DNA of 64,000 nt, from positions 729 through 64,728 of the forward strand of contig CAYSBC010000003.1 in assembly GCA_964429195.1 (NCBI GenBank), given 5' to 3'. Numbering within the stretch: position 1 is the stretch's first letter; each line of letters opens with the position of its first letter. Shown here piece by piece: positions 7,814-48,764 of the stretch. The notes below the pieces were generated by a model that saw nothing but the letters and a program-made list of their open reading frames with translations, was not told the DNA's origin and ran no database searches. This DNA comes from an uncultured Eubacteriales bacterium (GTDB lineage Bacteria > Bacillota > Clostridia > Peptostreptococcales > JAAYPU01). A program made the position numbers and the translations under genes.

Positions 7814-7833
7814 TTTTCTATCACCTCTTTCCA

Positions 7834-9585: not shown

Positions 9586-9586
9586 T

Positions 9587-29505: not shown

Positions 29506-30336
29506 TTATTGATCTCCTAAATAAGTTTCAATTTCATCAAAGTAATTTCCTTCTACTGATTCAATTAACCCTTCATCACAGGCTTCCGCAATATGAGGCT
29601 TAATGGGTATCTTTGCTAAAACCTGGGTGTTGTATTCCTTTGCGATTTTATCGATATGGCTTTCACCAAATATTTTATAGGTTTTCTTGCAGTCCTCACA
29701 TGTGAAATAGGACATATTTTCTACTAGGCCTATAATAGGTATCTCCATTAATCTAGCCATTTTTACTGCCTTTTCTACAATCATTGATACTAACTCTTGA
29801 GGTGAGGTTACAATAATAATCCCATCAATTTTTATGGATTGAAATACAGTTAGAGCAACATCTCCCGTGCCCGGTGGCATATCAATGAACATAAAATCAA
29901 TATCACCCCATATAACATCTGTCCAAAATTGTTTAACTGTATTTGCTATAATCGGTCCTCGCCAAACAACGGGGTCTGTCTCATGTTCTAATAATAAATT
30001 GATTGACATCACATCAATGCCCGTTTTGCTTTTAACCGGTAAAAAGCCTTGTTCAGAGCCTGTAACCTTACCTGTTATCCCAAAAGCTTTAGGTATGGAA
30101 GGTCCTGTAATATCAGCATCCAAAATTGCCGTTTTGTATCCTTTCCTGTTCATTTCAACTGCTAGTAGCGAAGTAATTAAAGATTTTCCAACGCCACCTT
30201 TCCCGCTTATAACACCAATTACCTTTTTGATATGGCTTAATTCATGTGGCTTCACCGAAAAATCCGGTTTGTCTTCTTTCCTGCTGTCACAGGTTTCACC
30301 ACATGAACTGCAATTTTCTGTACAATTTTCGCTCAT
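29506..30336 (-). CDS. Mrp/NBP35/ApbC-family P-loop FeS-cluster carrier ATPase
   Basis: Deviant Walker A SGKGGVGKS. Cys-rich N-terminus (CTENCSSCGETC). A CEDC motif later in the protein. Confidence 0.88.
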   Translation of the reverse strand: MSENCTENCSSCGETCDSRKEDKPDFSVKPHELSHIKKVIGVISGKGGVGKSLITSLLAVEMNRKGYKTAILDADITGPSIPKAFGITGKVTGSEQGFLPVKSKTGIDVMSINLLLEHETDPVVWRGPIIANTVKQFWTDVIWGDIDFMFIDMPPGTGDVALTVFQSIKIDGIIIVTSPQELVSMIVEKAVKMARLMEIPIIGLVENMSYFTCEDCKKTYKIFGESHIDKIAKEYNTQVLAKIPIKPHIAEACDEGLIESVEGNYFDEIETYLGDQ

Positions 30337-30760: not shown

Positions 30761-30788
30761 ATTATATCTTTATCATGGCATATGTCAA
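30761..30788 (-). promoter_or_regulatory. sigma-A type promoter for the DUF134-mrp pair
   Basis: Minus strand TTGACA (30783-30788, overlapping the selU stop codon), 16 nt, TATAAT (30761-30766). Confidence 0.7.
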
Positions 30789-31891
30789 TAACTCTCTTTG
30801 TTTTTAAGATAATCTAATACCTCATCTTTATTCCCTTGGTATATAATTCTGTCCTTAACCTTTTGCATCTGAAATTGATACATGGGATCGTAGTATTCCA
30901 CTAATAGTTTCTCTATCCATCGCTTATGCAAATCGTAGCTTCCGGTATGAACTTGTTCCCAATAGGCTTGTTCAAATAAATGACTTATCTCCTTAAAAAA
31001 TTCTCCGCCTAGTCTCTTTTTTATATTCTGGAAGCCATTTCGTATATGATTGGCCCATTCAATCAAAGCTTGTTCTTCTTCAAACAGCTCTTTATAAGAG
31101 CCCTGGGATTCGACAACATACTCCTTTAATGTGATAGCTACCCTTTCTTCTATAGACGCTTCGAGGATGACTAAATCGCTGCTTTTAAAATGAAAAAATA
31201 AGGGCCTGGGCAAAAAACATTTTCCTACGTGTGCACCTTCATCCTCAAGAACCATGTCTTTATAGCCCTTATGCTTATGCTTTATCATGGCATAAGCCAA
31301 ATTGTTTTCAAAGTTTATTTGAGTGGCTTGGGGTGTCACCTGACTCCCAAATGCAGAGCCCCTATGATTCGCAATTCCCTCAAGATCAATAGCATTTTCT
31401 AATTTTTTTAATAAAATAGTCTTTCCCGAGCCCGTACAACCTCCTAACATGATGATATTGCTTTGAAGCTGAGATGGTTCAAGCTCCATCCTTAAATATT
31501 GGCGGAAAGCCTTATAACCTCCTTCAATCCTCATCCTATTTTTTCCTGTTATCTCTTTAATCCATTGTTGCGTGATTTGAGAGCGAAGTCCTCCTCTAAA
31601 ACAATAAACAAGGCTATCAGGATACCTTTTTAGATGATCCGTCCAAGCATTAACCCGAGCCTCTTTTATCTCTCCGCATACCAATTGGTGACCTAATCTT
31701 ACTGCTTCTTCACTTCCCTTTTTCTTATAACATATTCCAACTAAATGTCTTTCTTCATCATTCATCAGCGGCAAATTAACCGTATTTTTAAAAGTCCCTT
31801 TATTAAATTCAAGGGGTGCTCTTACGTCAATTAGAGGCATTTCGTCTATCACAATCTTTTCAAAATCATTCCAAGTTAATTTTTCCATCAT
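30785..31891 (-). CDS. selU: tRNA 2-selenouridine synthase
   Basis: N-terminal rhodanese domain with active-site CFRGGLRSQ, followed by P-loop GGCTGSGKT. 368 aa. Overlaps the selD stop by 4 nt. Confidence 0.9.
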
Positions 31892-32919
31892 ACCACCTTG
31901 ATGAATTTACCAAAGGCCTCGCAAGTTTCCCCAATAGGTTTCAGGGACAGTCCGGCAGCAGCAGTTATCTCTAAAAATTCCGGAATACCTTCTTTTTTAA
32001 CAATCACAAGAAGCCCACCGGAGGTTTGAGCATCACATAAAATATCTCTTTGCTCTTCTGTTAATCCCTCAATAGTGTCTCCATAACTCAAGAAGTTATT
32101 GCGGGTTCCACCAGGTACGCAGTCCATCGCAAGGTATTTCTTGGTATGGGGCAGCAAAGGAATCTTATCAAATTCAACAATAGCTGAGATGCCACTGGCT
32201 TTACAGACCTCCCCCAAATGTCCCAATAATCCAAATCCTGTAATGTCCGTCAATCCGACAACACTGTCTAGGCCCGAAATCTCAGCACCAATTTTATTTA
32301 AAGTTGTCATCGCCTCAATGGCAGGCTCTATATGACCAGGCTCAATCTTTTTCCTTTTTTGAGCAGTCGTCAAGATACCAATACCTAGTGGCTTCGTAAT
32401 AAAAATAGCACACCCGGGAATGGCTTGATTGTTTTGTTTTAATCGGTTATTATCTACAATGCCTGTCACAGCCAGTCCAAAGATAGGCTCCGGAGAATCA
32501 ATAGAATGTCCTCCTGCAAGCGGGATACCTGCTTCATCGCAGATTGAACGCCCACCTTCAATAACCCTTCCCGCAATCTCCGGATCAAGCAGATTAATGG
32601 GCCATCCTAGTATAGATATAGCCATAAGCGGTGTGCCCCCCATGGCATAAATATCACTTATGGCATTGGTAGCCGCAATTTTGCCAAAGGTAAAGGGATC
32701 GTCAACTATCGGCATGAAAAAATCTGTTGTGCTTAAAATAGAGGTTCCATTTCCCAAATCATAAGCCGCCGCATCATCTTTATTGTCATACCCCACTAAA
32801 AGGTTAGGGTAATTCTTTTTATCTCCCGCCTTATTTAATATAAGATCCAATGTAGATGGGGCAATTTTGCATCCACAACCTGCTCCATGACTATATTCTG
32901 TTAATTTTATCTCTTGCAT
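31888..32919 (-). CDS. selD: selenide, water dikinase (selenophosphate synthetase), Cys-type
   Basis: N-terminal [10 protein letters not shown] motif; the first Cys is TGT, not TGA. AIR-synthase-like fold motifs. Start set at MQEIKLTEY (32919), which has AGAGGAAA upstream. Confidence 0.93.
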
Positions 32920-32990
32920 AAAAATATTTCCTCTCTTTTTCAGTATCAAGTCTGCTCATTAATTTTAACATATTTTTTTTAAAAATAACA

Positions 32991-33018
32991 TTGACAATAG
33001 AATAAATAAGGATATAAT
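32991..33018 (+). promoter_or_regulatory. sigma-A type promoter upstream of the ABC-transporter T-box leader
   Basis: TTGACA (32991-32996), 16 nt, TATAAT (33013-33018). Confidence 0.6.
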
Positions 33019-33159
33019 AACAAGTAATTAAAAATAGAAACTGTTGCAGTAGAAATCTACAAAACGAAAATTTGTGATTTCTATGCATAAGTTCGCTAAC
33101 AATTTGTTTCACAAATTGGGCGAGCTGATAAATTGAGAAGAGTACATGCTTTTCGACAA

Positions 33160-33414
33160 TTTTAAACAAATAATGATTCATTGTTTGTTATCCAGAGAGT
33201 TGCAGATGGTGGAATGCAATAATTGTCTTTGTATGGAATGGCCTCATGAAGGTGGTAGGAACGACTTCAAGTCTAGTAATGACCAACGGGATTCCCACTC
33301 GTTACGAAGGGATGCGTATGATTGTACGTCATAGAGTGGATGCTTTCGCATCAATTTAGGTGGTACCGCAGAAGTTTAGCTTTTGTCCTATAGATAGGAT
33401 AAAAGCTTTTTTTA
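33160..33414 (+). promoter_or_regulatory. T-box riboswitch leader, probable Trp (UGG) specifier
   Basis: AGAGAG (33194-33199); GGTGGAA distal loop; specifier context GAA-TGG-C (TGG 33239-33241); stem III GATGCTTTCGCATC; T-box GGTGGTACCGCA (33359-33370). Terminator AGCTTTTGTCCTA/TAGGATAAAAGCT plus T7 (33378-33414). Confidence 0.88.
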
Positions 33415-33448
33415 TTATAAAAATTATATTTAATAGGAGGAATTATTC

Positions 33449-34420
33449 ATGAAAAGAAAATTCAAAATTGTTTCATTCATCATCGTTATGGCCTTATTTG
33501 TCAGCTTAATCTCAGGATGCAGCGATAAAGAAATTCCTGTTATCGGTATTTCTCAATATGGCGAACATGCTTCCCTAGATAACTGCAGGGAAGGCTTCCT
33601 ACAAGGTCTCATGGATTCCGGTTTAGAGGAAGGGAAAGACTTTAATTTAGATTATCAAAATGCAGGCTTTGATGATGCAATCAATACCCAAATAGCTCAA
33701 AGTTTTTCTGCTAATAACGTGGACTTGATGGTTGGTATTGCCACCCCATCAGCTACCGCCCTTTATGCAGCCGCTGAGGATAAGAATATTCCGGTAGTTT
33801 TTACAGCTATTACAGATCCGGTGGAAGCTAAGCTGGATCAAGGCAATGTGACAGGAACAAGTGATAAGCTTCCCGTTAGCGCCCAATTAGAACTTATCCG
33901 CACTTTGCAGCCTGAAGCCACTACCATAGGTATTCTCTATACTACCAGTGAGCCAAACTCTATCTCAGCCATTGCAGAGTATCAAGAAAAAGCCCCTGCA
34001 TACGGCTTCTCTATTGAAGCCATTGGCATTACCATGCAATCCGAGGTGACTCTTGCATTGGATACTCTCATTGCCAAAAATGTTGACTGCTTCTCTAATT
34101 TAACAGATAATAATGTAGTAGGTGTTTTACCTTCTATCTTAGAAAAAACAACGGATGCGGGTATACCGGTTTATGGAAGCGAAGTTGAACAGGTTAAAAA
34201 AGGATGTGTCGCTTCTGCAGGCATTGACTACTATCAACTGGGCATCAGTACAGGGAAGATAGCAGCTCAAATTATTAAAGGAGAGGCTACTGCCGAAGAA
34301 ATACCTTATGAAACCATACAGGAATACCATGTATATGTTAATTCTGAAGCACTTAACGAGATGAACTTAGAGCTTCCTGAGTCTATTTCAAACAATGCAA
34401 TAGAAGTTCATAATATTTAG
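33449..34420 (+). CDS. ABC transporter substrate-binding lipoprotein (ABC_sub_bind/BMP-like; TrpX-like)
   Basis: Lipobox LISGCSD. 323 aa. First gene of a three-gene ABC operon behind a Trp T-box. Confidence 0.8.
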   Translation: MKRKFKIVSFIIVMALFVSLISGCSDKEIPVIGISQYGEHASLDNCREGFLQGLMDSGLEEGKDFNLDYQNAGFDDAINTQIAQSFSANNVDLMVGIATPSATALYAAAEDKNIPVVFTAITDPVEAKLDQGNVTGTSDKLPVSAQLELIRTLQPEATTIGILYTTSEPNSISAIAEYQEKAPAYGFSIEAIGITMQSEVTLALDTLIAKNVDCFSNLTDNNVVGVLPSILEKTTDAGIPVYGSEVEQVKKGCVASAGIDYYQLGISTGKIAAQIIKGEATAEEIPYETIQEYHVYVNSEALNEMNLELPESISNNAIEVHNI

Positions 34421-34439
34421 AACAAGTAGGAGAAATGCA

Positions 34440-35324
34440 ATGAATAACTATCTTGATTTATTTACCAGCACGGTCACTCAAGGTTTGATATACGGTTTAA
34501 TTGCATTCGGCGTCTATATCACTTACAAGATATTAGACTTCCCGGATTTAACGGTGGATGGCAGCTTCCCTTTAGGAGCTGCCATAACCGCAGTTCTGCT
34601 GACCCATCATGTTCATCCCTATTTGACATTATTAATTGCCATTCTTGTTGGAGCCATTGCCGGCTTCATTACCGGCGTCCTTCATGTTAAATTGCACATT
34701 CGGGATTTATTGGCCGGTATCATCACGATGACTGCCTTGTTCTCCATCAACCTTCAAATAGCAGGTTCTAATCTCGTTGTGACCCGAAGTATTCACACTA
34801 TCTTTACTTCAGGTTTTTTGAGTGATGTTCCTCTTATTTATCGGAAATTAATTATCTCTTTGATTCTTGTTCTTGCCATAAAATTCATACTGGATGCTTA
34901 CTTTAAAACAAAAAGTGGACTACTCTTGAGAGCTGTAGGAGATAATAGTTTGGTAGTGACGACGCTAGCTAAAGATAAAGGCACAGTGAAGATTATCGGC
35001 CTTACAATTTCAAATGCTTTGGTCGCCTTATCCGGCGCTATTGTCTGCCATGAACAACGGTCCTTCTCAAGCACCATGGGAACCGGTCAAATGGTTTTTG
35101 CCCTAGCCGCTGTTATTATGGGGACAACCCTCTTCAGAAGACTCGGTTTTGTCAAAGGAACTACTGCGGCCTTAGTTGGCAGTATTGTCTATAAAGCGGC
35201 CATTCAAGTTGCCATTAACCTGGGTTTACCTGCAAATTTATTAAAACTCATGACTTCCATTCTTTTCGTTATCATACTGGTCTATGGTAATTTCCAAAGG
35301 AAAGAGGTGAAAAACAATGCTTGA
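34440..35324 (+). CDS. ABC transporter permease (TrpY-like)
   Basis: 294 aa polytopic membrane protein between the binding-protein and ATPase genes. Confidence 0.8.
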   Translation: MNNYLDLFTSTVTQGLIYGLIAFGVYITYKILDFPDLTVDGSFPLGAAITAVLLTHHVHPYLTLLIAILVGAIAGFITGVLHVKLHIRDLLAGIITMTALFSINLQIAGSNLVVTRSIHTIFTSGFLSDVPLIYRKLIISLILVLAIKFILDAYFKTKSGLLLRAVGDNSLVVTTLAKDKGTVKIIGLTISNALVALSGAIVCHEQRSFSSTMGTGQMVFALAAVIMGTTLFRRLGFVKGTTAALVGSIVYKAAIQVAINLGLPANLLKLMTSILFVIILVYGNFQRKEVKNNA

Positions 35325-36090
35325 ACTCAAAAATATTACAAAAATATATAACCCGGGTACCATTACAGAAATGTGTCTCTTTGACAATTTTAACCTGAAG
35401 GTATCCGATGGAGAATTTTTATCTATTGTAGGAAGCAATGGAAGCGGTAAAACTTCCTTGTTAAATATTATCTGTGGCAATATAGCTATTGAATCCGGTG
35501 AAGTTTTAATTAATCAAGAGAATGTCAATAAACTAAGTGACTTCCAACGCTACAAGAAAATAGGCCGAGTTTACCAAAATCCAGCTATGGGAACCTGTCC
35601 AAGTCTTACCTTACTAGAAAACATGTCTCTTGCCGATAATAAAGGAAAGATTTTTGGTCTTAGTCGCGCTATAAACAAAGCTCGCATAGACTACTATCGA
35701 GATCAATTAGCTACTCTAGGATTAGGCTTGGAGGATAAATTAAATGTTAAGCTTTCCAACCTCTCAGGTGGTCAACGTCAGGCTGTTGCCTTGATTATGT
35801 CCACATTGACACCCATTGAATTTCTTATTCTTGATGAGCACACGGCAGCTCTGGATCCTAAAACTGCTGAAACCATTATGGTATTAACCGATAAAATCGT
35901 GAAAGAAAAACAATTAACAGCAATCATGGTCACACATAATCTTCGCTATGCTGCAAATTATGGTAATCGTTTAATCATGATGAACAAAGGTGATATTGTA
36001 TTAGAGCGTTCCGGAGAACAAAAGATCGCTACTTCTGTTGATGACATCCTGCATGTTTTCACAGAAATTAGTATTGAGTGCGGCAATTAA
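35317..36090 (+). CDS. ABC transporter ATP-binding protein (TrpZ-like)
   Basis: Walker A GSNGSGKTS, signature LSGGQRQ, Walker B LILDEHTAALD. Confidence 0.92.
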   Translation: MLELKNITKIYNPGTITEMCLFDNFNLKVSDGEFLSIVGSNGSGKTSLLNIICGNIAIESGEVLINQENVNKLSDFQRYKKIGRVYQNPAMGTCPSLTLLENMSLADNKGKIFGLSRAINKARIDYYRDQLATLGLGLEDKLNVKLSNLSGGQRQAVALIMSTLTPIEFLILDEHTAALDPKTAETIMVLTDKIVKEKQLTAIMVTHNLRYAANYGNRLIMMNKGDIVLERSGEQKIATSVDDILHVFTEISIECGN

Positions 36091-36524
36091 TCCCTTTTTC
36101 TTTTCAGGAGTTGTTTAACTTGAGCCTCTAGCACAAGAGTACCATCTTGGTTGCTTACAGTGAGTTGGATCTTTAAGACACCTTGTCTGCTTTTCGATGA
36201 GGAAATCATATCTAATATTTCTACTTCACCTGTTAATACGTCATTGGGGTAAACAGGAGCGGTCCAACGAAGGGAATCCATGCTTAACCCTGCGATGACT
36301 TCTGTTCCTGTTTTGTTCAATCGAGTCCACTGACCCCATACGAGGCATAAAGTGTGAAAACCCGAAGCTATAATGCCCTTGAACATACTTTCCTCAGCAG
36401 CTTCTTTATCAAGATGGAGATACAGCGTATCATACTTGGATGCAAACTCCTCTATTTCTTCTAAGGATACACTCACAGGATTCAAGTCAAACTTCTGCCC
36501 TATTTCAAATTCTTCAAAATACAT
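36087..36524 (-). CDS. MaoC-like (R)-hydratase / hotdog-fold protein
   Basis: MYFEEFEIGQKF start with GGGGAGG 9 nt upstream. GIIASGFHT motif. The ORF-track N-terminal extension to 36608 has no RBS support. Confidence 0.8.
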   Translation of the reverse strand: MYFEEFEIGQKFDLNPVSVSLEEIEEFASKYDTLYLHLDKEAAEESMFKGIIASGFHTLCLVWGQWTRLNKTGTEVIAGLSMDSLRWTAPVYPNDVLTGEVEILDMISSSKSRQGVLKIQLTVSNQDGTLVLEAQVKQLLKRKRD

Positions 36525-36670
36525 AAATGGATACCTCCCCAATTTTAAGTTATTTTTTATAATAGCATAATTCAACTCATAATTATAGGGCTGCCCATAA
36601 GAATTCATAAATCCCCCATGGCGCAGCCCCTTAAAGTAAATTTAAATTAAGATTAATTGATGGCTATAGG

Positions 36671-38584
36671 CTATAAACCCATCTTTTCTCTTTTACTCAA
36701 AATATGAGCTTCAATATCTTTGGCAACTTGAACGGGATCATCGCCTAGCGCTACCTTCCCGCCTGTTAGCCCTTCCACATCTTCTGTAAGAAGTTTTACA
36801 AGATTAGGAGCCCCTGTAATAAATGGTGTCGGTGACAAATGGGTATAGGCCCCATAAGCTACAGTAAACAACCCATCAATGGTTGCCTTTTGTTCCATCC
36901 ATTCCGGTGCAGTGACAGCAATCGGCAGATCGGATATATCTGCATCGAGATGATCTGCCAAAGCAGTAACAAGCATAGATATTCTTCCCGTATCTGTGCA
37001 GGTCCCAAAGCTTAGAACAGGAGGAATGCCTAAGGCTTTACATACTCCTTTTAGTCCGTCCCCTGCTAACTCTATGGCATCTAAATTACACATTCCTGCC
37101 ACTTCCAGTCCATGATTACCACAACCACCTGCTACAACTAATATATCCTTTTTGATGAACTCTTTCGTAAGATTCACCGTGTTCCAATCTTGTGGACCAT
37201 TTCTCAAAGTAGAACAGCTTGCCAAAGCCACGATGCCTTTTATCTGTCCCTTTGCTAGGACATCCACCAAGACATTCAAGTCATTACCAATTGCTTTTAA
37301 AACAGCCTCCGTAGAAAAACCTGCAATGGCTTTTGTCTTATGATGGGGAACCATAGGTTTAATAACCCCGTGTCTCTTTTGGAAGTTATCAATAGCAATA
37401 TTAATGCAACTTTCTGCCATTTCATCCACTTTAGAAGGATAATAAGGCATCTCGTGCTCTGTTCCCGGCACACCGATAATCGTACTTACACTCACAAGAG
37501 CAAATTGATATTTTTCAGCATATTGATCCATAGCAGGAGGGGAACAATTTTCTTCGATAACCAAGGCATCCACAGTACCTGTTGCCAAGAAAGGTTCAAT
37601 CGCCAACCAATTTCCCATGAGCCCCACAAAAACATCGTCTACTTCAAATCTTTGTAACAACTCTTGTCCGGTCTCTATGGAACCGACAATGCGAATACCC
37701 TTTGCTCCTGCTTTTTTTGCCCGCTCTTGATAATCTTGTTTTCTAGCTTTTTGTAAGGCTGCTACGCCAACCCAGGGTTGATGTCCATTAAAAACAATAT
37801 TGACGTAATCAGGATCCATAATTCCCATATCCACATCCACTTCATGGGGCATAGGTGTTCCAAAGAGGATATCCTGAGTCATTTCTAAACCGATTTGTGC
37901 AGTGTAAATGGTAGATATACCTAACCGCAGTGCTTTCTTAGCCAAGGAAATATAATCACCATCAACATTTGTCAAGCAGCTGGCAATACAATTCTCCACC
38001 TCGTGTTGCACTCCTGAAGGGTACAGATTCAATTCTTGCCATAAGGATTTTCTCTTTTTGGGGGCAAAAGCCTCCATCATCATGCTTTTCTGGTCAGGGT
38101 TAATCTTCATCTCTTTATCTAAGAGTTCCGCCAATTGTATTGCTAATTGATTCACATCCTGTTTTGTATCGATGCCTACTTTTTCACACATCCATTTTAA
38201 CTTATCGGTATCCGTAATTTTAAAAGGTGTTTTCCCTTCTCCCGTAGCCTTGAGTGTTCTAAAAGCTTCAAAAGCATGATGTCCATAGGTTGCTGCTCCC
38301 ATAATGTTCCTCATGAGCAAACTCCTCATGGCCATGGCATCAGCATCTATACCGCAGACACCCTTGTCTGCACCTGCCTTGTCACTTATTCTGCATGGTC
38401 CATGGGTGCAAAGTTGGCAGCTGAGTCCTTGAAGGCAAAATTTACAGCGAATTTTCTCTTGGGCCTCCCATCTTGAAAATACGCTTGAAAGACCATCCTC
38501 CTTTATTCTTTTCAGCATTTCTTCTACGGAATCATGGTAGCTTACACGACCTTCTGTTCTCTCTAAAATAGTATCTGTCATCAT
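36671..38584 (-). CDS. CooS-family (anaerobic Ni-CODH scaffold) protein with a non-canonical active-site motif
   Basis: N-terminal Cys pattern CKFCLQGLSCQLCTHGPCRI and later SFGTCTDTGRI are CooS-like. Where I expect G-x-C-C-T-G-N-E, the sequence reads G-S-I-E-T-G-Q-E. Start set at MMTDTIL (38584), which has AAGGAGA upstream. Confidence 0.75.
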   Translation of the reverse strand: MMTDTILERTEGRVSYHDSVEEMLKRIKEDGLSSVFSRWEAQEKIRCKFCLQGLSCQLCTHGPCRISDKAGADKGVCGIDADAMAMRSLLMRNIMGAATYGHHAFEAFRTLKATGEGKTPFKITDTDKLKWMCEKVGIDTKQDVNQLAIQLAELLDKEMKINPDQKSMMMEAFAPKKRKSLWQELNLYPSGVQHEVENCIASCLTNVDGDYISLAKKALRLGISTIYTAQIGLEMTQDILFGTPMPHEVDVDMGIMDPDYVNIVFNGHQPWVGVAALQKARKQDYQERAKKAGAKGIRIVGSIETGQELLQRFEVDDVFVGLMGNWLAIEPFLATGTVDALVIEENCSPPAMDQYAEKYQFALVSVSTIIGVPGTEHEMPYYPSKVDEMAESCINIAIDNFQKRHGVIKPMVPHHKTKAIAGFSTEAVLKAIGNDLNVLVDVLAKGQIKGIVALASCSTLRNGPQDWNTVNLTKEFIKKDILVVAGGCGNHGLEVAGMCNLDAIELAGDGLKGVCKALGIPPVLSFGTCTDTGRISMLVTALADHLDADISDLPIAVTAPEWMEQKATIDGLFTVAYGAYTHLSPTPFITGAPNLVKLLTEDVEGLTGGKVALGDDPVQVAKDIEAHILSKREKMGL

Positions 38585-38671
38585 CCTATTCTCCTTTTTC
38601 AATGGTTTCCAAAAATCCACATTTTGAATAGTATGACCAGAATCATCCATTTCAATGCTAAGAATTGTACC

Positions 38672-40144
38672 CTAGGTACCACAAAATGTCCGGTAGGGCA
38701 CTGATGATGATGGGGGAGTAGCGCAGTATTCAGCTTCCACATTCCTGTGATCATAAGGCCTTGAAAGAACCTCTATCAGCTTTTCGAATAAATGATAATC
38801 TCCCTTTTCCGCCCCTCCTAGTGCTTCCTCTACCAGGTGATTTCGAGGTATCACAGCAGGATTAGAATGCATCATCAACTCTATTGATGCATCTCTTGAT
38901 TCCTTTTGTCGTCTTAACCTTTCTTGCCATCGTTTATGCCATTCTGTGAATTCTACAGCCTTCAATAAGTCCATATCCTCCGGCCTATTTTGTGTCAATA
39001 CTCTGAAAGTATTGGTATAGTCAGCCTCATGCTGATCCATGATGGCTAGAAGATCTTTAGCAAGTAACAGATCCTCATCCTCCTCGTTAAACAAGCCTAA
39101 CTTTGCTCTCATCCCTGTCATCCAGTGATGTTGATAGAGGCCATGAAAACCTTGAACAGCCTCCTCGGCTATTGGGATTGCTTCTTCTTGCTTGTCGTGT
39201 AATAAAGGTAATAAGGTTTCAGCAAATCGAGCTAAATTCCACGCTGCAATCCATGGCTGATTGCTATAAGCATAGCGCCCATGTCTATCAATAGAGCTAA
39301 ATACTGTCCCAGGTTTGTAAGTATCCATAAAAGCGCAAGGTCCATAGTCAATGGTCTCGCCACTGATGGTCATGTTATCCGTATTCATGACACCATGAAT
39401 GAAACCAACCAACTGCCATTTGGCAATCAAGCTTGCCTGGCGCTTTATTACTTCCTTTAAAAATGAAAGATATTGTTTCTCTCCATCATTACAATGAGGA
39501 AAATGCCTTCTTATTGTATAATCGACTAATATCTTAAGCTCATTTGCATCTCCCCATTGTGCAGCATATTCAAAGGTTCCCACCCTGATATGGCTTGCAG
39601 CTATGCGGGTTAAAATGGCTCCTTGTAAAATATTCTCACGAAAAATAGTTTCCCCCGTTGTCACTACAGCCAGACTCCTTGTAGTGGGTATACCGAGAGC
39701 ATACATGGCTTCACTCATGATATATTCCCGCAACATGGGCCCAAGGGCAGCTCGTCCATCTCCACCTCTGGAATAAGGCGTTCTTCCCGATCCCTTAAGC
39801 TGGACATCCAATCTTTCACCTGAGGGTGTTATCTGTTCTCCAAGCAATACTGCCCTTCCATCACCTAGCATTGTAAAATGTCCAAATTGATGTCCTGCAT
39901 AGGCTTGAGCAAGGGGTAAGGCACCTTCGGGAACTTGATTGCCTGCAAATACGGATAAAAATTCTTCCTTATTGAGAGCCTGTACATTTAATCCCAGTGC
40001 CTTTGCTAAAGGATCATTCAAGATGATCAGTCCCGGTGAAGAAACGGGAATGGGGTCCATTAAGGAAAAGAAGGATTGGGGTAAAGAAGCATAACTGTTA
40101 TCAAAATTCCATCCTGCCTTTAAACTTGATTTTTTTTCTTCCAT
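38672..40144 (-). CDS. selO: SelO/YdiU-family protein adenylyltransferase (AMPylase pseudokinase)
   Basis: 490 aa. YAGHQFG, LGDGRA and HGVMNTDN motifs typical of UPF0061/SelO. C-terminal ...RTFCGT has Cys where eukaryotic SelO has Sec. Confidence 0.88.
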
Positions 40145-40364
40145 AATCTATCCTTTCTCAATTTTTTTACTGCTATCATTATCCATTATTCTTCATTCTA
40201 ACCTATTCTTCTATAAATATAATTATAGTGTCTGTTTCTAAACATTTTTTATTCTTTCTTATATGCTGTTACAATGCTTCTTTATTTTGCTTCTAAAGCT
40301 TGTATATTCTGTTCTTTGTTTGTAAAAGATAACTGAAAATATGATTAGAGAGAAGGCAGAATAG

Positions 40365-41852
40365 ATGGCTATACAAAAACAAAAAATCTTCGCGAAAGAA
40401 CCTCAATCTTATTGGATTGATTCAATAACTCAACCGGAGTATCCTAGCTTAAAGGAAGATATCCATGCCGATGTTGCCATCATCGGTGGTGGTATTGTTG
40501 GAATTTCCACTGCCTATATGCTTAGCCAACATGGCATTAAAACGGTCATACTTGAGGCAGACCAAATCTTGCAAGGAACAACCGGCCACACAACAGCCAA
40601 AATAACATCTCAGCATGGATTAATCTATGATAAAATCAAAAAACAAATAAGTGAAGAATACGCAAAGCAATATGCCGATGCAAATGAAGCTGCAATTCAC
40701 ATGATTGAGAAGATTGCAAAGAAAAATAACATCCAATGCGATTATACCCCTCAATCTTCCTATGTCTATACTCTTCAAGAACATTATATTGATAAAATAA
40801 GAAGCGAAGTCGAAGCAGCCTCATCTTTAGGTATTAAAGCAACCTACTTAGAAGAAACCCCCTTACCTTTTCCTGTGAAGGCCGCTATACGATTTGATAA
40901 TCAAGCTCAATTTCATCCTCGACGATTCTTACTTCCTTTAGCAGAGAAGATAATAAGCCTTGGCAGTCAGATTTATGAGCAAAGTGCCATTGTTAATATC
41001 GAAGAAAATGAAAATGGACAATATACCCTCATAACGAAGGACGGAAAAAAGGTGAAAGCAGAAAAGGTTATTATCGCCTCTCATTTCCCTTTCTATAATA
41101 AACACGGGCTATACTTTACTCGAATATATCCGGAGAAATCCTATGTTGTTGCCATCAAGGCAAAAGAAAAATATCCCGGTGGAATGTATATAACAGCCGA
41201 AGATCCGGGTCGTTCACTTCGTAGCCAAATATCGGATCAAGGTGAGTTGATTTTTGTAGGAGGTGAACATCATAAGACAGGCCAAAGCGAGGATACTTTA
41301 AAGCACTATGAGGCTTTAACGGAATTTGCCCGTACTCACTTTACAGTAGAAAATCTTCCTTACCATTGGTCTACCCATGATTGCATGACATTAGATGGTA
41401 TACCCTATGTAGGTCCTTATACCTCCAAAACACCTCATCTGTTTATTGCAACAGGCTTTGGAAAATGGGGAATGACCAACAGCATTGCCTCTGCAATACT
41501 ATTAAAAGACCTCATTGTAAAAGGTGATTGCCCTTGGCAGGATGTCTATAATCCTTCCCGTCATACCTTCTTAGCCTCATCCAAAAACTTTATTATTGAA
41601 AACCTTAATGTGGCAAAAGAGCTTATAGGAGGCAAAGTCGCTTCCAATCTTTTAGATGGGGACATCGATACAACATGTACCCATATGGGTTGTGAATGTA
41701 CTTGGAATTCCGCAGAAAAAACTTGGGATTGTCCATGTCATGGTTCCCGGTTTACTTATGAAGGAGATGTGATTGAGGGCCCTGCCCTTAAGCCTTTAGG
41801 CTTCCACAGAAGTGTCAATACAGTTGAAAAACTGATAAAAGATGATTTTTAA
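40365..41852 (+). CDS. FAD-dependent oxidoreductase fused to a C-terminal Rieske 2Fe-2S domain
   Basis: N-terminal DVAIIGGGIVGIS dinucleotide fold. C-terminal CTHMGC...CPCHGSRF Rieske motif. Confidence 0.85.
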   Translation: MAIQKQKIFAKEPQSYWIDSITQPEYPSLKEDIHADVAIIGGGIVGISTAYMLSQHGIKTVILEADQILQGTTGHTTAKITSQHGLIYDKIKKQISEEYAKQYADANEAAIHMIEKIAKKNNIQCDYTPQSSYVYTLQEHYIDKIRSEVEAASSLGIKATYLEETPLPFPVKAAIRFDNQAQFHPRRFLLPLAEKIISLGSQIYEQSAIVNIEENENGQYTLITKDGKKVKAEKVIIASHFPFYNKHGLYFTRIYPEKSYVVAIKAKEKYPGGMYITAEDPGRSLRSQISDQGELIFVGGEHHKTGQSEDTLKHYEALTEFARTHFTVENLPYHWSTHDCMTLDGIPYVGPYTSKTPHLFIATGFGKWGMTNSIASAILLKDLIVKGDCPWQDVYNPSRHTFLASSKNFIIENLNVAKELIGGKVASNLLDGDIDTTCTHMGCECTWNSAEKTWDCPCHGSRFTYEGDVIEGPALKPLGFHRSVNTVEKLIKDDF

Positions 41853-42085
41853 AGTAAACATTCAACAATTTTATCGTGTTTAAAGTGATGCTTCTTCAAA
41901 AACTCCTCAAGAACATTTCTTTGTTCAAGACTTCCTTTCCAAGCCAACCCACATCCTGCTGAAATAGTAGGCGGTAAAGGAATGATGCGTCCTTTTAAGC
42001 CTTCCATTTTAGCAGTCTCTTCAAAGCCCATAGCTTCTGTCGTGGCTTGGAAGGTAATAAGCAAATACCTTTCTTTTTGTCTCAT
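41849..42085 (-). CDS. DUF3343 (putative Se/S carrier-like) protein
   Basis: 78 aa from MRQKERYLLITF. Conserved ISAGCGLAW Cys motif. Its ATG overlaps the stop of the upstream desulfurase gene (ATGA). Confidence 0.75.
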   Translation of the reverse strand: MRQKERYLLITFQATTEAMGFEETAKMEGLKGRIIPLPPTISAGCGLAWKGSLEQRNVLEEFLKKHHFKHDKIVECLL

Positions 42086-43224
42086 CGATTTTCTCCTTCC
42101 AATACCCATAGAGCATGTATAGCCTCATCAATGTCATCTACCCTATTAAAATGGGAAAAACTAAAACGCACCATGCCCTGTTCTAGAGTCCCAAATGCCC
42201 TGTGAACTTCCGGAGCGCAATGAGCTCCCCCACGGGTTGCTATTCCAAAACGCTGAAATAATTCATCCGCTAAAAAACCGGAATGTACATCTCTTAGATT
42301 AAGTGTAACGATAGGTGTTCTCACATCAGCATCATAATCCCCATACAAGATGATGCCGGGTAAATCTTTCACCCCATCCAAAAATTTTTTCGCAAGAAAG
42401 CTTGCTTCTTGAAATATCTTGTCTTGTCCAACTTCATTGAGATAATCGCAGGCTGCAGAGAGTCCGGCAATACCATGAGTATTAAGTGTACCTGCCTCAA
42501 GTGCCTCCGGTAAAAACCTTGGCATCTCATGGGAAAAACTATCTCCACCGGTTCCGCCCACCTTAAGGGGATTTGGCATCACTCCATCAGCTAAACATAA
42601 GATACCTGTGCCTTGAGGCCCCAGCATACTTTTGTGCCCTGAACAACAAAGTGCTGAAATGCCACTTTCCTCTAAATGAATAGGTAGAAGCCCTGCTGTC
42701 TGAGAAGCATCTAGAATAAGTAACAAATTATGCTTTTTACATAGCTTGCCGACTCCCTCTAAATCTTGGACATTGCCTATGACATTGGAGGCATGATTCA
42801 TGATCACAGCCTTCGTTTCCGGGCATATTTCTGCCTCAATAGCACATGTCTGAACATACCCTTTGCTATTGGCAGGAACAGTTGTCACCTTAACACCCTG
42901 CTTTTCCATAAGATAAAGAGGTCTTAATACACTATTATGTTCCAAAGATGTGGTTATACAATGGTCCCCTTCCTGAAGAAGACCCTGAATAGCAATATTT
43001 AAACTTTCTGTTGCATTGAAAGTGAAGACAACACGAGAACAATCATCCATGCGAAAAAAATCAGCAATTTTTTTCCTTGTTTGGTATACCATGCGACTTG
43101 CCTCAAGAGATACACCATGGGCCCCACGCCCACTATTGCCGGATCCCTTTAGGGCATGGCATACCGCTTCTATCACAGCCTCCGGCTTATGAAAAGAGGT
43201 TGCTGCATGATCTAAGTAAATCAT
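42082..43224 (-). CDS. class-V aminotransferase: cysteine desulfurase / selenocysteine lyase family (NifS-like)
   Basis: 380 aa. MIYLDHAATS start, PLP-lysine context SGHKSMLGPQG, C-terminal GGAHCAP active-site Cys loop. Confidence 0.85.
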   Translation of the reverse strand: MIYLDHAATSFHKPEAVIEAVCHALKGSGNSGRGAHGVSLEASRMVYQTRKKIADFFRMDDCSRVVFTFNATESLNIAIQGLLQEGDHCITTSLEHNSVLRPLYLMEKQGVKVTTVPANSKGYVQTCAIEAEICPETKAVIMNHASNVIGNVQDLEGVGKLCKKHNLLLILDASQTAGLLPIHLEESGISALCCSGHKSMLGPQGTGILCLADGVMPNPLKVGGTGGDSFSHEMPRFLPEALEAGTLNTHGIAGLSAACDYLNEVGQDKIFQEASFLAKKFLDGVKDLPGIILYGDYDADVRTPIVTLNLRDVHSGFLADELFQRFGIATRGGAHCAPEVHRAFGTLEQGMVRFSFSHFNRVDDIDEAIHALWVLEGENR

Positions 43225-43240
43225 ATTTTTCCCTTCCCAT

Positions 43241-43630
43241 TTATGGATTTATAATTTTAATAGCATTCATTTGCTTTTCAGCAATTGTATACATGTTCGT
43301 AACAGTTCCTACTTCTAAAGAATGAGTTAATTGATAATAGTTTAAACAGGTGCCACAAGTTAGTATCTGCACACCTTGAGATTCTAAAAGCTTTAAATCC
43401 TCTAAAGAATCCGACCCTTTTGTCGCCAAATAGGCTCCACTGTTGTATAGTAGAATTGTTTTAGGCAAATATTCTTGTTCTGTTAGCGCATAAATAAAAT
43501 TTTTCAAAAGGGTTCGCCCTAATTTCTCGTCACCTTCTCCCATTTTATCGGAAGATAAAACAACAACCGTATTATCCATAAGACCCCTTCTTTCTATAAC
43601 TGTATCATCCTTTAAAATATGTTTATCCAT
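43241..43630 (-). CDS. YedF-like selenium-metabolism protein, C-terminal (DsrE-like, CGXC) domain only
   Basis: 129 aa. VVVLSSDKMGEGDEKLGRTLLKNF and a redox-type CGTC motif. No TusA/SirA-like N-terminal domain is encoded. An alternative start at MDNTVVV is possible. Confidence 0.65.
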   Translation of the reverse strand: MDKHILKDDTVIERRGLMDNTVVVLSSDKMGEGDEKLGRTLLKNFIYALTEQEYLPKTILLYNSGAYLATKGSDSLEDLKLLESQGVQILTCGTCLNYYQLTHSLEVGTVTNMYTIAEKQMNAIKIINP

Positions 43631-44348
43631 TTTCTGCTCCTTCTCTATGCTTTTTTTTAACCTTGATTGCGCAGCCTATGCCTATAATGATTCCATGTAT
43701 AATATAAAGTATAGCTAACACGACTAGGGTTAAGTTTCCTATTTTATGGATGGCTATGAAAGAGATAATGCCCCCTATAAAATAAAGAAAAATCGAAATA
43801 CCATAAAAGCGTAGCTTCCAAAGTTGTTCCCAATCCCCTTTTATTATCGCAACCAGACTATAGGCTGCATCGGTAATATAACCTGTCATATGCGTTGTTC
43901 TCACTAAAACACTGTTGATTCTGATACATGTGCCATTCTGAATTCCCATACCTAAAGCTAGAACAGAAAGAGTTGCAGCCTTACTATTAAAACCTTTATA
44001 AATAACCAGCAAACTTATGCCGAATAGAATCGGCATAAGACCATGATTCTTGCACAGATCTGATTCATTCCTATGAAAAAGAAATCTTGCAATGACAGAT
44101 CCTAGAAAAAACAATATAATATAAGCCAATAGCTTGCCGAGAATGAATAGTTGTCCACTTCCCAGAGCAACAGCTGCATGACTGATATTTCCTGTATAAT
44201 GTGTGATGGAGATTCCAAACAAGACTAAGGCACAAATATTAATTGCACCTGCCAGAAAGGTAAGACTTCCAATCCAGGCAAAGTAAAAATTTTTTCTTAA
44301 AATGCTATTCGTTTTGTCTCTTAACAATATCCATAATGTCCCCTTCAA
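43623..44348 (-). CDS. YoaK/DUF1275-family membrane protein
   Basis: 241 aa, about 6-7 TM. TTHMTGYITD motif is typical of DUF1275. Probable TTG start after GGAGGG. Confidence 0.65.
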   Translation of the reverse strand: MKGTLWILLRDKTNSILRKNFYFAWIGSLTFLAGAINICALVLFGISITHYTGNISHAAVALGSGQLFILGKLLAYIILFFLGSVIARFLFHRNESDLCKNHGLMPILFGISLLVIYKGFNSKAATLSVLALGMGIQNGTCIRINSVLVRTTHMTGYITDAAYSLVAIIKGDWEQLWKLRFYGISIFLYFIGGIISFIAIHKIGNLTLVVLAILYIIHGIIIGIGCAIKVKKKHREGAENG

Positions 44349-44366
44349 ATGTCACCCTCCTACTAA

Positions 44367-45173
44367 TCAACGTAACTTATTGCGCGACTTTGCAAGCAAA
44401 TATCTCTTTTTGTATTTGAGACTGGCATATTCACCAATCTTGTTAATGATGTTAAAATTGGCCACACTGCCAATGACTCCGACAATGGCAAATCCCTGAA
44501 TAAATTTCGTCGTCAACATGGCTTCAGATAGCACCTTGGATGTTTGTTCCATGCGTTCTTTCAGATTAACTTCTGTTTTTATCTTGCGATCTATCTGCTC
44601 CCCAAGCCTGTCAATTTCTTCATTATATCCCTTTTGTTCTTCCCCTTTTGATAAGGAACCGCTGAGAATGAGAAGAATATAGGCTTTTTCTTCATCGCTA
44701 TCATAATCATAGCCATAACCTAGTGCGACTTCATAAATAGATTTCATAATCATTGCTATAAAAACGGGAATATCCGGTAGCCCTACACCCAAAAGTCCTA
44801 AAACGCCTCCCTCTATAAAAGATAATGAAGAATTGCGAAAGAGTGAACTATTAGCTTGTTTATCGATCCTCTTAATATTTCTCTTATCTATCCTCTTATC
44901 GATTGCATAATTATTTAAGTCATACTCCAGTTGAATATTCTTTTTATTATAAGTCTTTTCTATATAAGGATTACCCTTTTCAAAAACGACTTGAAAACCT
45001 TTTAGAAAAGCACTCTCAAGTACTCCTATTAGCTTATCCGGTATCTTTTCTTGTATTTTATCTTTAATAGGAGAAATTTTTTTGCTAATAAATTTGTTTT
45101 CTTTTTTATTGAGAATTTTATCTTCTCTTTTATGGAGTTTTTTAAACTGCTTATTTAATTCTCGATCCATCAT
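44367..45173 (-). CDS. EcsC-family protein
   Basis: 268 aa. Lys-rich N-terminus followed by an EcsC-like core. The family assignment is from overall resemblance only. Confidence 0.55.
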   Translation of the reverse strand: MMDRELNKQFKKLHKREDKILNKKENKFISKKISPIKDKIQEKIPDKLIGVLESAFLKGFQVVFEKGNPYIEKTYNKKNIQLEYDLNNYAIDKRIDKRNIKRIDKQANSSLFRNSSLSFIEGGVLGLLGVGLPDIPVFIAMIMKSIYEVALGYGYDYDSDEEKAYILLILSGSLSKGEEQKGYNEEIDRLGEQIDRKIKTEVNLKERMEQTSKVLSEAMLTTKFIQGFAIVGVIGSVANFNIINKIGEYASLKYKKRYLLAKSRNKLR

Positions 45174-45246
45174 TCACCTCTAAATTTAATTGCCATCCCT
45201 TTGCTTTAGCGTTATTTTTATTATACACTATTACCCAATATCCTAC

Positions 45247-45296
45247 CTAAAAAAAGCTGACCCGTCATAGAATCCACATTCTATTATGAGGCAGCT
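45247..45296 (-). terminator. terminator after tRNA-Sec
   Basis: Imperfect 19-position stem (15 pairs) AGCTG..CATAGAAT / ATTCTAT..CAGCT with loop CCAC, followed by T7 on the minus strand. Confidence 0.6.
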
Positions 45297-45309
45297 CTCT
45301 TTTTAGTCT

Positions 45310-45406
45310 TGGCGGGAGCATGTGGGAATCGAACCCACCCAAGGGGTCCTTAACCCCTCGAACCGATTTTGAAGACCGGCGATAACACCAGCTACCATCT
45401 ACTCCC
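45310..45406 (-). tRNA. selC: tRNA-Sec (anticodon UCA)
   Basis: Minus-strand read: GGGAGTAGATGGTAGCTGGTGTTATCGCCGGTCTTCAAAATCGGTTCGAGGGGTTAAGGACCCCTTGGGTGGGTTCGATTCCCACATGCTCCCGCCA. Anticodon loop is CT-TCA-AA. Long variable arm (GAGGGGTT..GACCCCTT), GGTTCGATTCC T-arm, encoded CCA. About 97 nt. Sits 33 nt downstream of selB. Confidence 0.93.
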
Positions 45407-45439
45407 AAATAACTTGTTTTAATTATAATACACCTTATG

Positions 45440-47338: not shown

Positions 47339-47348
47339 GACTTTATCC

Positions 47349-48764
47349 CTACACTTTTTGTATACTATCAATCGCCCGGATAAGATAAGGTAATGCCTCT
47401 TCTTCAATAGTCCTGCAATCTAAGAGGATAGCACCCCTATGAATACGTGCAATAATGGGAATAGATTGATTTCTTAAACTTCCTTCAAAGTCATTAACAC
47501 TTTTTAACAGAGGCTTTATTTGTATCAAAAAGCTGGGCAATTCATGTAATGGCAAGGAACCACCACCTATTTGAGAAAAGCCTTCTACTAAAGACACCTC
47601 CATATTTTCGAAATGCTGAAGTGCACTCCATATTTTAAATGCTTTTTCCCTTATTTCTTTCTTATCCATGGTCATCATCTTGAGTGTCGGAATTTTTTCA
47701 AGTGGAGCTCCCGAAAAATATATTTGCAGAGTTGCCTCAAGTGCCGCTAAAGTTAATTTATCAACTCTAAAGGCTCTGGCGAGTGGATTTTCTTTCATCT
47801 TTTCTATCCAATCTTTTCTCCCAATGATGATACCCGCTTGAGGTCCTCCCAATAATTTATCTCCGCTAAAACAAATGATATCCGCACCCGTTTCCACACT
47901 TTCTTTAATGGTCGGTTCATCAACAATGCCATATTCTTTAAGGTCCATTAAGCATCCGCTACCCAAATCATGAATGACAGGAATGTTGTAGGTCTTACCC
48001 ATGGCAGCTAATTCCTTTAGACCCACCTCCTCAGTAAAGCCTAAAATCCTGTAATTGCTTGTATGTATTTTTAGGAAAGCTCCTGTATTTTCAGCATCTA
48101 TTACTTTCATATAATCACTTAGATGTGTTTTATTGGTAGTCCCCACTTCTTTTAATCTGGTTCCACTTTGACTCATAATCTCAGGAATTCTGAATGACCC
48201 TCCAATTTCTACAAGCTCACCTCGGGATACGATAACTTCTTTATCCTTTGCCAGTGTATTCAGTATGAGCATGATGGCTGCTGCATTGTTATTGACGACA
48301 AATGCTGCTTCCGTTCCGGTAAGTTTTGTTAGCATTTTTTCTATAGGATCATAGCGTGAGCCTCTTTTCCCTTGATCTATATCATATTCGAGATTGGAAT
48401 AATGACCTGCTATATCAAAAATATGCTCTTTTATTTCATCAGCTAATAGCGCACGGCCAAGATTGGTATGCAATATAATCCCAGTTGCGTTGATAACCTT
48501 TCTTAAGCCCCATTGCTTTCTTTCTTCTATTTCAAAAACGATTTCATCTAATAAATCCTGCCGATTGAAGATGTTCTCCGAAACCATGCCCTCTGATATA
48601 GCGGATAACATCTTGTTTCGCACTTTTTCTATTTGGTCACGGATAATATCAGTCATTCTCTTGCGTGATATTTGATCATGATAGAATTTGATTTTCTCAT
48701 CCATGAGTATTTCATCAACCTTGGGTAATTGTCTCAACCATTCTTTTTTATCCATTTTTATCAC
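47349..48764 (-). CDS. selA: L-seryl-tRNA(Sec) selenium transferase
   Basis: 471 aa. PLP-lysine motif FSGDKLLGGPQAG and SRGELVEIGGSFRIPE. Confidence 0.93.
   Translation of the reverse strand: MIKMDKKEWLRQLPKVDEILMDEKIKFYHDQISRKRMTDIIRDQIEKVRNKMLSAISEGMVSENIFNRQDLLDEIVFEIEERKQWGLRKVINATGIILHTNLGRALLADEIKEHIFDIAGHYSNLEYDIDQGKRGSRYDPIEKMLTKLTGTEAAFVVNNNAAAIMLILNTLAKDKEVIVSRGELVEIGGSFRIPEIMSQSGTRLKEVGTTNKTHLSDYMKVIDAENTGAFLKIHTSNYRILGFTEEVGLKELAAMGKTYNIPVIHDLGSGCLMDLKEYGIVDEPTIKESVETGADIICFSGDKLLGGPQAGIIIGRKDWIEKMKENPLARAFRVDKLTLAALEATLQIYFSGAPLEKIPTLKMMTMDKKEIREKAFKIWSALQHFENMEVSLVEGFSQIGGGSLPLHELPSFLIQIKPLLKSVNDFEGSLRNQSIPIIARIHRGAILLDCRTIEEEALPYLIRAIDSIQKV

Follow-up and report, generated by a model that had tools for sequence, protein, structure and literature searches.

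Does a gene that databases would name for the catalytic subunit of an anaerobic carbon monoxide dehydrogenase (CODH) belong to CO metabolism, and if not, when is its product made? The question is raised by a coding sequence at 36671..38584 on the minus strand of a 64,000-nucleotide (nt) stretch of DNA (the window) from an uncultured Eubacteriales bacterium (contig CAYSBC010000003.1, assembly GCA_964429195.1). A preliminary description of the locus had proposed that its product, a protein of 637 residues, might be a hybrid-cluster enzyme like CooS-V and not a true CODH, and this view held up: the best structural match is CooS-V, and all hybrid-cluster ligands are shared with it. Judged from its sequence, the protein is very probably a Ni-free hybrid-cluster protein of the CooS-V type, that is, of structural group D-1 in clade D, and not a CO dehydrogenase. 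Proteins of this kind are already known and structurally characterized, and at the protein level the finding is ordinary since the work on CooS-V. The part that goes beyond that knowledge is a conserved forespore-type promoter upstream of the gene, which suggests that the gene is expressed in the forespore.

The family assignment rests on several searches. The protein matches PF03063 (Prismane/CODH) with E 3e-148 (residues 77-639 of the 659-residue open reading frame [ORF] considered below) and TIGR01702, the model of the anaerobic CODH catalytic subunit, with 863 bits against a cutoff of 478, over model positions 1-621 of 621. Models of the hybrid-cluster protein (HCP) miss it, with 48.3 bits for TIGR01703 (cutoff 360.8) and 46.4 bits for NF003658 (cutoff 367). 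Its best match among solved structures is CooS-V of Carboxydothermus hydrogenoformans (7B7Q and the four sister entries 7B7T, 7B95, 7B97, and 7B9A; Jeoung et al. 2022), which aligns over the full length with E 6e-254, as compared with E 3e-131 for the best canonical CODH structure. Global identity is 58.6% to CooS-V, about 41% of residues being unlike, versus 32-39% (maximum 38.6%) to four canonical CODHs and 32-36% in the comparison with CODH-II, CODH-IV, and Rhodospirillum rubrum CooS. In a neighbor-joining tree, whose taxa included no D-2, D-3, or D-4 reference sequences, the window protein stands beside CooS-V: it falls in a tight mesophilic subclade (81-88% identity among many Clostridia and Tissierellia) whose sister is a thermophile group containing CooS-V, and a long branch parts both groups from canonical CODHs.

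We then compared ligand residues in a MAFFT alignment of the window protein (numbered from the Met encoded at 38584) with CODH-II (1SU6), R. rubrum CooS (1JQK), CODH-IV (6ELQ), a Thermococcus CODH (6T7J), and CooS-V (7B7Q). The CODH-II sequence was checked at the level of score: it matched 1SU6 from 1-636 to 1-636 and obtained the highest value there, 1424.9 bits, with the variant chains 1-9 bits lower. The R. rubrum sequence was identical to 1JQK in the alignment, and the remaining references were taken from the matches to PDB. Both strings on which the preliminary description had relied, IVFNGHQPWVG and IRIVGSIETGQELL, are present in the protein, and its motif register proved right: downstream of NGHQPW, Ile-Glu stands in place of Cys-Cys. 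His261 of CODH-II corresponds to His268, Cys294 to Ile303, and Cys295 to Glu304, which matches Glu295 of CooS-V; the Ile303 and Glu304 positions are invariant in 240 of 240 homologs. The other C-cluster cysteines of CODH-II, Cys333, Cys446, Cys476, and Cys526, are retained as Cys347, Cys457, Cys488, and Cys529. Exactly one ligand cysteine is exchanged, for Glu. To say that the protein lacks the Cys-Cys pair was correct in that both residues are replaced, but it overstated the change, as only Cys295 ligates the cluster; when all positions are scored against CODH-II, CODH-IV, CooS-V, and R. rubrum CooS, the His and four Cys are kept. The complete ligand set of a Ni,Fe-CODH (His plus five Cys) is accordingly absent, as is its acid-base pair, His93/Lys563: Lys563 is kept as Lys566, but His93 is replaced by Tyr100. 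Two residues ahead of Lys566 stands Glu564, in place of His561 of the canonical enzymes.

On the minus strand, the codons for Ile303 and Glu304 occupy 37673..37678 (Glu304, 37673..37675). The other hybrid-cluster residues, whose roles are taken from the CooS-V structures (PMC9311411), are spread over 36893..37783 of the same strand, with His268 at 37781-37783, Asn346-Cys347 at 37544-37549, Cys457 at 37214-37216, Cys488 at 37121-37123, Cys529 at 36998-37000, and Glu564 at 36893-36895; the Lys566 codon (36887-36889) lies just beyond this span. The N-terminal Fe-S motifs are encoded at 38354..38446, also on the minus strand, and consist of Cys47 and Cys50 for the predicted subunit-bridging [2Fe-2S] D-cluster (type III) and Cys56, Cys59, Cys64, and Cys77 for the [4Fe-4S] B-cluster. 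Cys50 is found at the position of Gly42 of CODH-II and Ser55 at that of Cys47, so that a CxxC motif takes the place of the canonical Cys39/Cys47 pair. The resulting pattern, C-x2-C-x5-C-x2-C-x4-C-x12-C, is the same in CooS-V.

In CooS-V the cluster residues are His259, Glu295, Cys338, Cys449, Cys480, Cys521, and Glu556, with Asn337 in the second shell, and a change of Gly41 to Cys is correlated with that of Cys295 to Glu in the CooS-V subclade (PMC9311411). The hybrid-, B-, and D-cluster ligands are all identical in the window protein, which likewise shares Tyr91, Asn337, Glu556, Lys558, and the Gly41-to-Cys change. The signature of group D-1, consisting of a type III D-cluster, the ligand series H-E-C-C-C-C, Tyr where the acid-base His would be, a retained Lys, and a Glu that precedes this Lys by two residues (Inoue et al. 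2019; PMC6344411), is present in every element: 18 of 18 diagnostic residues are found in the window protein and are invariant in the 240 homologs, and no sequence difference from the group was detected.

What such a protein might do is suggested by CooS-V itself, which is without nickel and has no CO/CO2 activity (PMC9311411). Its cluster passes from [4Fe-2S-S*-2O-2H2O] to [4Fe-3S] upon reduction, its midpoint potentials are very low (-390 mV for the "+3/+4" couple), the cluster can be reached by substrates only when reduced, and hydroxylamine is reduced slowly, with a kcat of 0.13 per s (PMC9311411). These traits agree with those given in the preliminary description (an Fe/S/O cluster, no CO oxidation, slow turnover of hydroxylamine). 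By analogy with this 59%-identical homolog, the window protein would have the same metal content, would not turn over CO, and would act in the reductive direction. HCP (hydroxylamine reductase, TIGR01703) offers a more distant comparison. It shares PF03063 and, according to the literature, has an analogous Fe/S/O hybrid cluster and ligand set, a likeness that makes reductive catalysis the probable direction for the window protein too. The differences are that the window protein gives only local matches to HCP structures (E 1e-8) and should have, as CooS-V does, a dimeric CODH architecture with a D-cluster; moreover, the potentials of CooS-V are about 300 mV lower than those of HCP and its hydroxylamine activity about 100-fold weaker (PMC9311411).

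We propose that the protein is a homodimer on the CODH scaffold whose pocket would hold a Ni-free, redox-morphing [4Fe-3S-nO] cluster in place of the [Ni-4Fe-4S] C-cluster. Electrons would pass from the D-cluster by way of the B-cluster to the hybrid cluster, the last being held by His268, Glu304, Cys347, Cys457, Cys488, Cys529, and Glu564. If the protein behaves as CooS-V does, reduction at about -390 mV would drive out oxo bridges, a persulfide sulfur on the equivalent of Cys529 would shift into the cluster, and a substrate channel would open. Because it is reduction that opens the channel, the most likely activity seems to be the reduction, at low potential, of some small N/O compound (hydroxylamine-like, NO, or peroxide).

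Where the gene begins bears on how it is transcribed. The longest ORF ending at 36671 on the minus strand starts with an ATG at 38650 and would yield 659 residues. The start at 38584 given in the preliminary description is better supported and is likely the true one, because the sequence AAGGAG (38596..38591, minus strand), which reads as a ribosome-binding site, lies 6 nt before it, because the 240 homologs retrieved have, almost without exception, 636-640 residues, and because a predicted promoter lies within the 22-codon extension. That extension (38585..38650, minus strand) would be noncoding and would hold the 5' untranslated region and the -10 element. A locus identical to that of the window is present on a 10-kb metagenome contig of the Joint Genome Institute (L089, 166-2145), where the 659-residue form was called (P0001). 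Its long start is probably a mis-call, since the additional codons contain the predicted leader and -10 element.

The predicted promoter, GCATT-N15-GGTCATACTA, is located at 38658..38629 on the minus strand, in the gap between selO and cooS-V. Its -35 element (38658..38654) is just upstream of the extension, and its -10 element (38638..38629) ends 44 nt before the ATG. To see how general it is, we turned to a scan of a genome collection, which gave 80 loci (L001-L080) from different species with orthologs 81-88% identical to the window protein (the best, at 88%, in a metagenome-assembled genome [MAG]). The genera represented are Sedimentibacter, Lacrimispora, Hungatella, Herbinix, Mobilitalea, Aminipila, and Alkalibaculum, together with many MAGs. 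A bipartite motif, G-[A/T]-A-T-[T], 17 nt, CATA[C/T]TA, usually with GG(A) preceding the -10 block, occurs in about 70 of 79 ortholog upstream regions. The -10 block ends 25-45 nt ahead of the ATG (25-39 nt for the middle half of the sites), and the flanks are nearly free of information. The pattern G[ACT]ATN-N16-18-CAT[ACT][ACT]TA is present in the last 120 nt upstream of 47 of 79 orthologs, as compared with 7 of 1201 other ORFs in the same loci. It corresponds to the textbook consensus for σG in Bacillus subtilis, TGAATA-N17/18-CATACTA.

To avoid circularity, the regions were scored with an independent bipartite matrix built from 44 mapped σF and σG promoters of C. difficile (Saujet et al. 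2013, Table S6), with matrices for mapped σE (47 sites) and σK (23 sites) promoters trained alike and with AT-matched, strictly intergenic regions (n = 641) as controls. The window site scores 10.6 bits with the forespore (σF/σG) matrix versus 1.0 with that for σE and 2.0 with that for σK. Across orthologs, the median forespore score is 10.0 bits versus 5.1-5.3 bits for the controls, and 49% of the cooS-V regions reach at least 10 bits versus 6.7% of the controls (Mann-Whitney p about 1e-25 to 1e-26). The forespore matrix outscores the σE matrix in 78 of 83 regions, and neither the σE nor the σK matrix shows any enrichment upstream of cooS-V (p = 0.57 and 0.56). A site is also found upstream of all eight distant orthologs, which belong to other orders (from Carboxydothermus, Halobacteroides, Natroniella, Desulfallas, Desulfofundulus, Desulfoscipio, Metallumcola, and Thermincolia), which are 63-71% identical to CooS-V except for that of Carboxydothermus, whose product is 100% identical to the crystallized protein; these sites score 8.9-15.5 bits and lie 25-41 nt before the ATG. 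The candidate in the C. pertinax copy scores 8.9 bits. CooS-V and the window gene are alike in being solitary genes with a forespore-type promoter candidate upstream. Control regions with the highest scores include those upstream of splB (TIGR04070, 527 and 534 bits), a classical σG gene, and they serve as a positive control. The upstream region of a SpoIIQ-like M23 gene is also high scoring and was found too by a matrix built from cooS-V sites alone; spoIIQ is σF-dependent in C. difficile (Saujet et al. 2013).

The cooS-V sites share with σF/σG promoters the -35 sequence G[A/T/C]AT[A/T], a gap of 14-15 nt, and the -10 block GGnCATAYTA(A), and they differ in that the last -35 base is mostly T, not A, in the mesophilic subclade. 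The sites of C. difficile were mapped by experiment, whereas those of cooS-V are predictions from sequence. The cooS-V logo combines a G before the -10 element, a σF trait, with an A after it, a σG trait; the same mixture (G upstream, A downstream) was described for spoVT by Saujet et al. Three other readings of the motif were tried and rejected. A σE or σK promoter, whose -10 element also starts with CATA, was set aside in view of the trained matrices. A σA or extended -10 promoter was discarded because scores fall below those of control intergenic regions (9% of cooS-V regions versus 36% reach threshold, p = 1.6e-6) and a scan for σ70 sites stayed at chance level. A site for a dimeric regulator, suggested by GTAT and ATAC being reverse complements, was abandoned because the variants do not covary (GAAT occurs with CATAC, GTAT with CATAT). 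No Rfam family was found near cooS-V that would indicate an RNA element in the leader. We lean slightly toward the view that cooS-V in Bacillota is a solitary unit under a σF/σG promoter.

Some further features of these regions deserve mention. The spacer of the cooS-V promoters is not random: many orthologs have a run of T followed by a run of A (for example, TTTCTAAAAT) at -15 to -2 from the GACATACTA anchor, which might be accounted for by a site for a second regulator (SpoVT-like?), by curvature of the DNA, or by common descent. In some Sedimentibacter and Tissierellia, splB or SpoIIQ-like genes with forespore-type promoters lie within 10 kb of cooS-V (L016, 6461-7483; L019, 5458-6480; L008, 5583-6296), a proximity that is probably fortuitous. 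The window selO gene has a weaker forespore-type candidate of its own, GAATA-N14-ACAGACACTA, at 9.3 bits, 81 nt upstream (in 40145-40295), and the selO gene of L063 (935-2404) has one at 11.7 bits.

Taken together, these considerations lead us to suggest, with a probability of roughly 0.5, that in endospore formers CooS-V/D-1 proteins are low-potential reductases of the forespore regulon, probably carried into the dormant spore, where they would protect or restart redox chemistry. In Bacillota the solitary gene would be transcribed by forespore RNA polymerase containing σF or σG, and its product would be a forespore or spore protein, plausibly guarding the spore or the germinating cell from nitrosative or oxidative damage. 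There is precedent for a redox-protective spore role in the σG-dependent rubrerythrin of C. difficile, and C. hydrogenoformans, the source of CooS-V, sporulates and encodes both σF and σG (PMC1287953). A forespore role also fits the absence of operon partners and the finding that a knockout of cooS2 in C. autoethanogenum leaves autotrophy unaffected. The C. difficile regulon tables have no CODH/HCP entry, the presence of a D-1 gene in that species not being established.

Several points weigh against this proposal. At the protein level, the evidence consists of ligand identity and closest kinship to CooS-V, from which metal and activity are extrapolated, and the sole known substrate of CooS-V is turned over very slowly (PMC9311411). 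With the C. difficile matrix, about a quarter of the orthologs stay under 8 bits. We found no literature linking the CooS-V/D-1 group to sporulation. Transcripts of cooS-V could be detected, without change, in C. pertinax during exponential growth; for C. autoethanogenum, expression of cooS2 is reported; and "CODH" proteins of unassigned clade occur in vegetative C. tyrobutyricum and C. acetobutylicum. Genetic work on Methanosarcina acetivorans, as Inoue et al. cite it, hints that D-1 aids CO oxidation (PMC6344411). Finally, because D-1 proteins are present in non-sporulating archaea such as M. acetivorans as well (PMC6344411), a spore role would be a lineage-specific recruitment rather than the ancestral one.

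Some of these points would suit a different account, in which the protein is of the CooS-V type and yet serves in vegetative cells, in the stress response or in redox sensing, from a housekeeping or stress promoter, the upstream motif being neither a σF nor a σG site. Such roles have been suggested for clade D in the literature, the transcripts of C. pertinax and C. autoethanogenum and the archaeal proteins are in keeping with them, and a weak σA-like match, TTGAAA-16-TACTAT, overlaps the promoter site of the window. Across orthologs, however, σA-like sites are depleted relative to other intergenic regions, and the match is specific to the forespore matrix. In addition, the conserved positions (the C of CAT, the A that follows CATAYTA, the G located two bases upstream, and, 17 nt upstream, G-A/T-A-T) show traits of σG and σF promoters and not of σA promoters, and the lack of covariation between the -35 and -10 elements as an inverted repeat makes a dimeric regulator unlikely. 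We regard a vegetative function as possible but doubtful, and we favor expression in the forespore.

It is far less probable that the protein is a true Ni,Fe-CODH in which Glu serves as an unusual ligand and which oxidizes CO or reduces CO2. The score with TIGR01702 is well above its cutoff, databases use the CODH name, and the M. acetivorans genetics to which Inoue et al. refer is suggestive; the protein also has the fold, length, and B-cluster of CODH-II, CODH-IV, and R. rubrum CooS and five of their six C-cluster ligand positions. But it departs from them at the sites set out above, including that of the acid-base His, and CooS-V, which has the same residues, shows neither Ni nor activity with CO or CO2. 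Indeed, the C295E variant of CODH-II is Ni-deficient and inactive (PMC9311411). The maturation and electron-transfer partners of canonical CODHs are not near the gene: cooC, cooF, and acs are absent from the ORFs of the window, as examined with Pfam/NCBIfam or by eye and as the preliminary description had stated, and the Mrp/NBP35-like ATPase encoded at 29506-30336 does not match CooC. Nor are cooC, cooF, acs, ech, or FNOR conserved in the 80 close loci or found in the genes called at the eight distant loci. The intact autotrophy of the cooS2 knockout of C. autoethanogenum likewise speaks against a CODH, and the reading as a Ni-free CooS-V-type protein is the one we retain.

The genes on either side of cooS-V are not those of its orthologs. 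In the window, selO (38672..40144, minus strand) is 87 nt upstream of the start at 38584, and a MaoC-like hydratase gene (36087..36608) is 62 nt downstream. This placement had been noted correctly but is uninformative, as the neighborhood is not conserved. The gene had also been described as looking monocistronic, which holds for the orthologs, typically solitary, but is not established here: no intrinsic terminator was found between cooS-V and the MaoC-like gene, an arrangement unlike that of CooS-V, and co-transcription of the two is possible. The gap between an ortholog and its neighbor is typically about 150 nt, and tight same-strand neighbors are found at 2 of 79 loci upstream and 3 of 77 downstream. 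All-against-all clustering of the ORFs of 81 loci revealed no conserved operon partner: what recurred was generic ATPases of ABC transporters, in 28 loci and at varying distance, and nothing specific. The neighbors at the eight distant loci are unrelated to those of the window. These results agree with a 2026 study of genomic context in which 64% of clade D genes were solitary, no pattern was found, and the clade was left aside (PMC13056359). The reported association of D-1 with COG1063/HypA/HypB (PMC6344411) was not seen in the window or in the 88 loci.

Around cooS-V the window contains a near-complete selenium-utilization island (30785-48764), its genes all on the minus strand: mnmH/selU (30785-31891), selD (31888-32949), selO, a gene for a Se/S carrier (41849-42109), a gene for an SclA-like selenocysteine lyase/cysteine desulfurase (42082-43224), a yedF-like gene (43241-43630), tRNA-Sec (45310-45406), selB (45440-47407), and selA (47349-48764). 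The yedF-like gene matches TIGR03527 at positions 83-194 of 194; its ORF is without the SirA/TusA-like half at the N terminus, and the DUF1275 ORF before it runs to 43623. That cooS-V serves selenium metabolism, perhaps by reducing selenite or Se(0) at low potential to supply SelD, is suggested by the crowding of selD, mnmH, selO, the Se/S carrier, SclA-like, and yedF-like genes, tRNA-Sec, selB, and selA within about 12 kb of it, but is highly improbable, because SelD, MnmH, SclA-like, YedF, Se/S-carrier, and MaoC-like genes lie within 10 kb of cooS-V orthologs in none of the 80 loci and SelO in a single one (L063), and the eight distant loci have unrelated neighbors. We consider the linkage a local coincidence.

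The orthologs are found in Lachnospiraceae, Tissierellia, Oscillospiraceae, Peptococcia, and MAGs labelled Paenibacillaceae, and their flanks are unrelated despite the high identity of the proteins, which points to very strong constraint or else to a recent spread by horizontal transfer. Two of the loci with Paenibacillaceae labels (L073 and L075) have upstream regions almost identical to those of two Lacrimispora loci (L072 and L079), and so some MAG labels may reflect mis-binning.

Other features of the window can be recorded briefly. Divergent from selO, at 40365-41852 on the plus strand, is a gene for an FAD-dependent (DAO family) oxidoreductase with a C-terminal Rieske [2Fe-2S] domain, of which no homolog was found near other cooS-V orthologs. 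A three-gene set at 4292-10132 (minus strand) encodes a NuoE-like [2Fe-2S] protein, a NuoF-like flavoprotein, and a fusion protein of 1180 residues with 2Fe-2S, GltD-like FAD/NAD(P), 4Fe-4S, and molybdopterin oxidoreductase domains, in which a C-terminal molybdopterin-binding domain was not detected. For a molybdoenzyme linked to NAD(P)H, this architecture is unusual. Upstream of an ORF at 10587-11777, which by eye resembles an enzyme of the tryptophan synthase beta type, is a T-box leader (RF00230, 109.5 bits; 11854-12084, minus strand). Nearly all genes in the window (1-64000) lie on the minus strand, and the GC skew stays negative from end to end; hence the window probably lies within one replichore and is read against the direction of replication.

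What follows for the family is, first, a correction of annotation. The CooS-V/D-1 group takes in thousands of database entries that carry the name "anaerobic carbon-monoxide dehydrogenase catalytic subunit," and these, including the window protein and its 81-88%-identical relatives in fermentative Clostridia of guts and digesters, should not be taken as evidence for CO metabolism. Second, the conserved forespore-type promoter is a cheaply testable lead on the role of clade D, an acknowledged gap, and ties a metalloenzyme to the biology of the spore. If membership in the forespore regulon is true, it would give the D-1 group its first physiological context and would explain both why knockouts show no phenotype in vegetative cells and why the gene has no operon partners.

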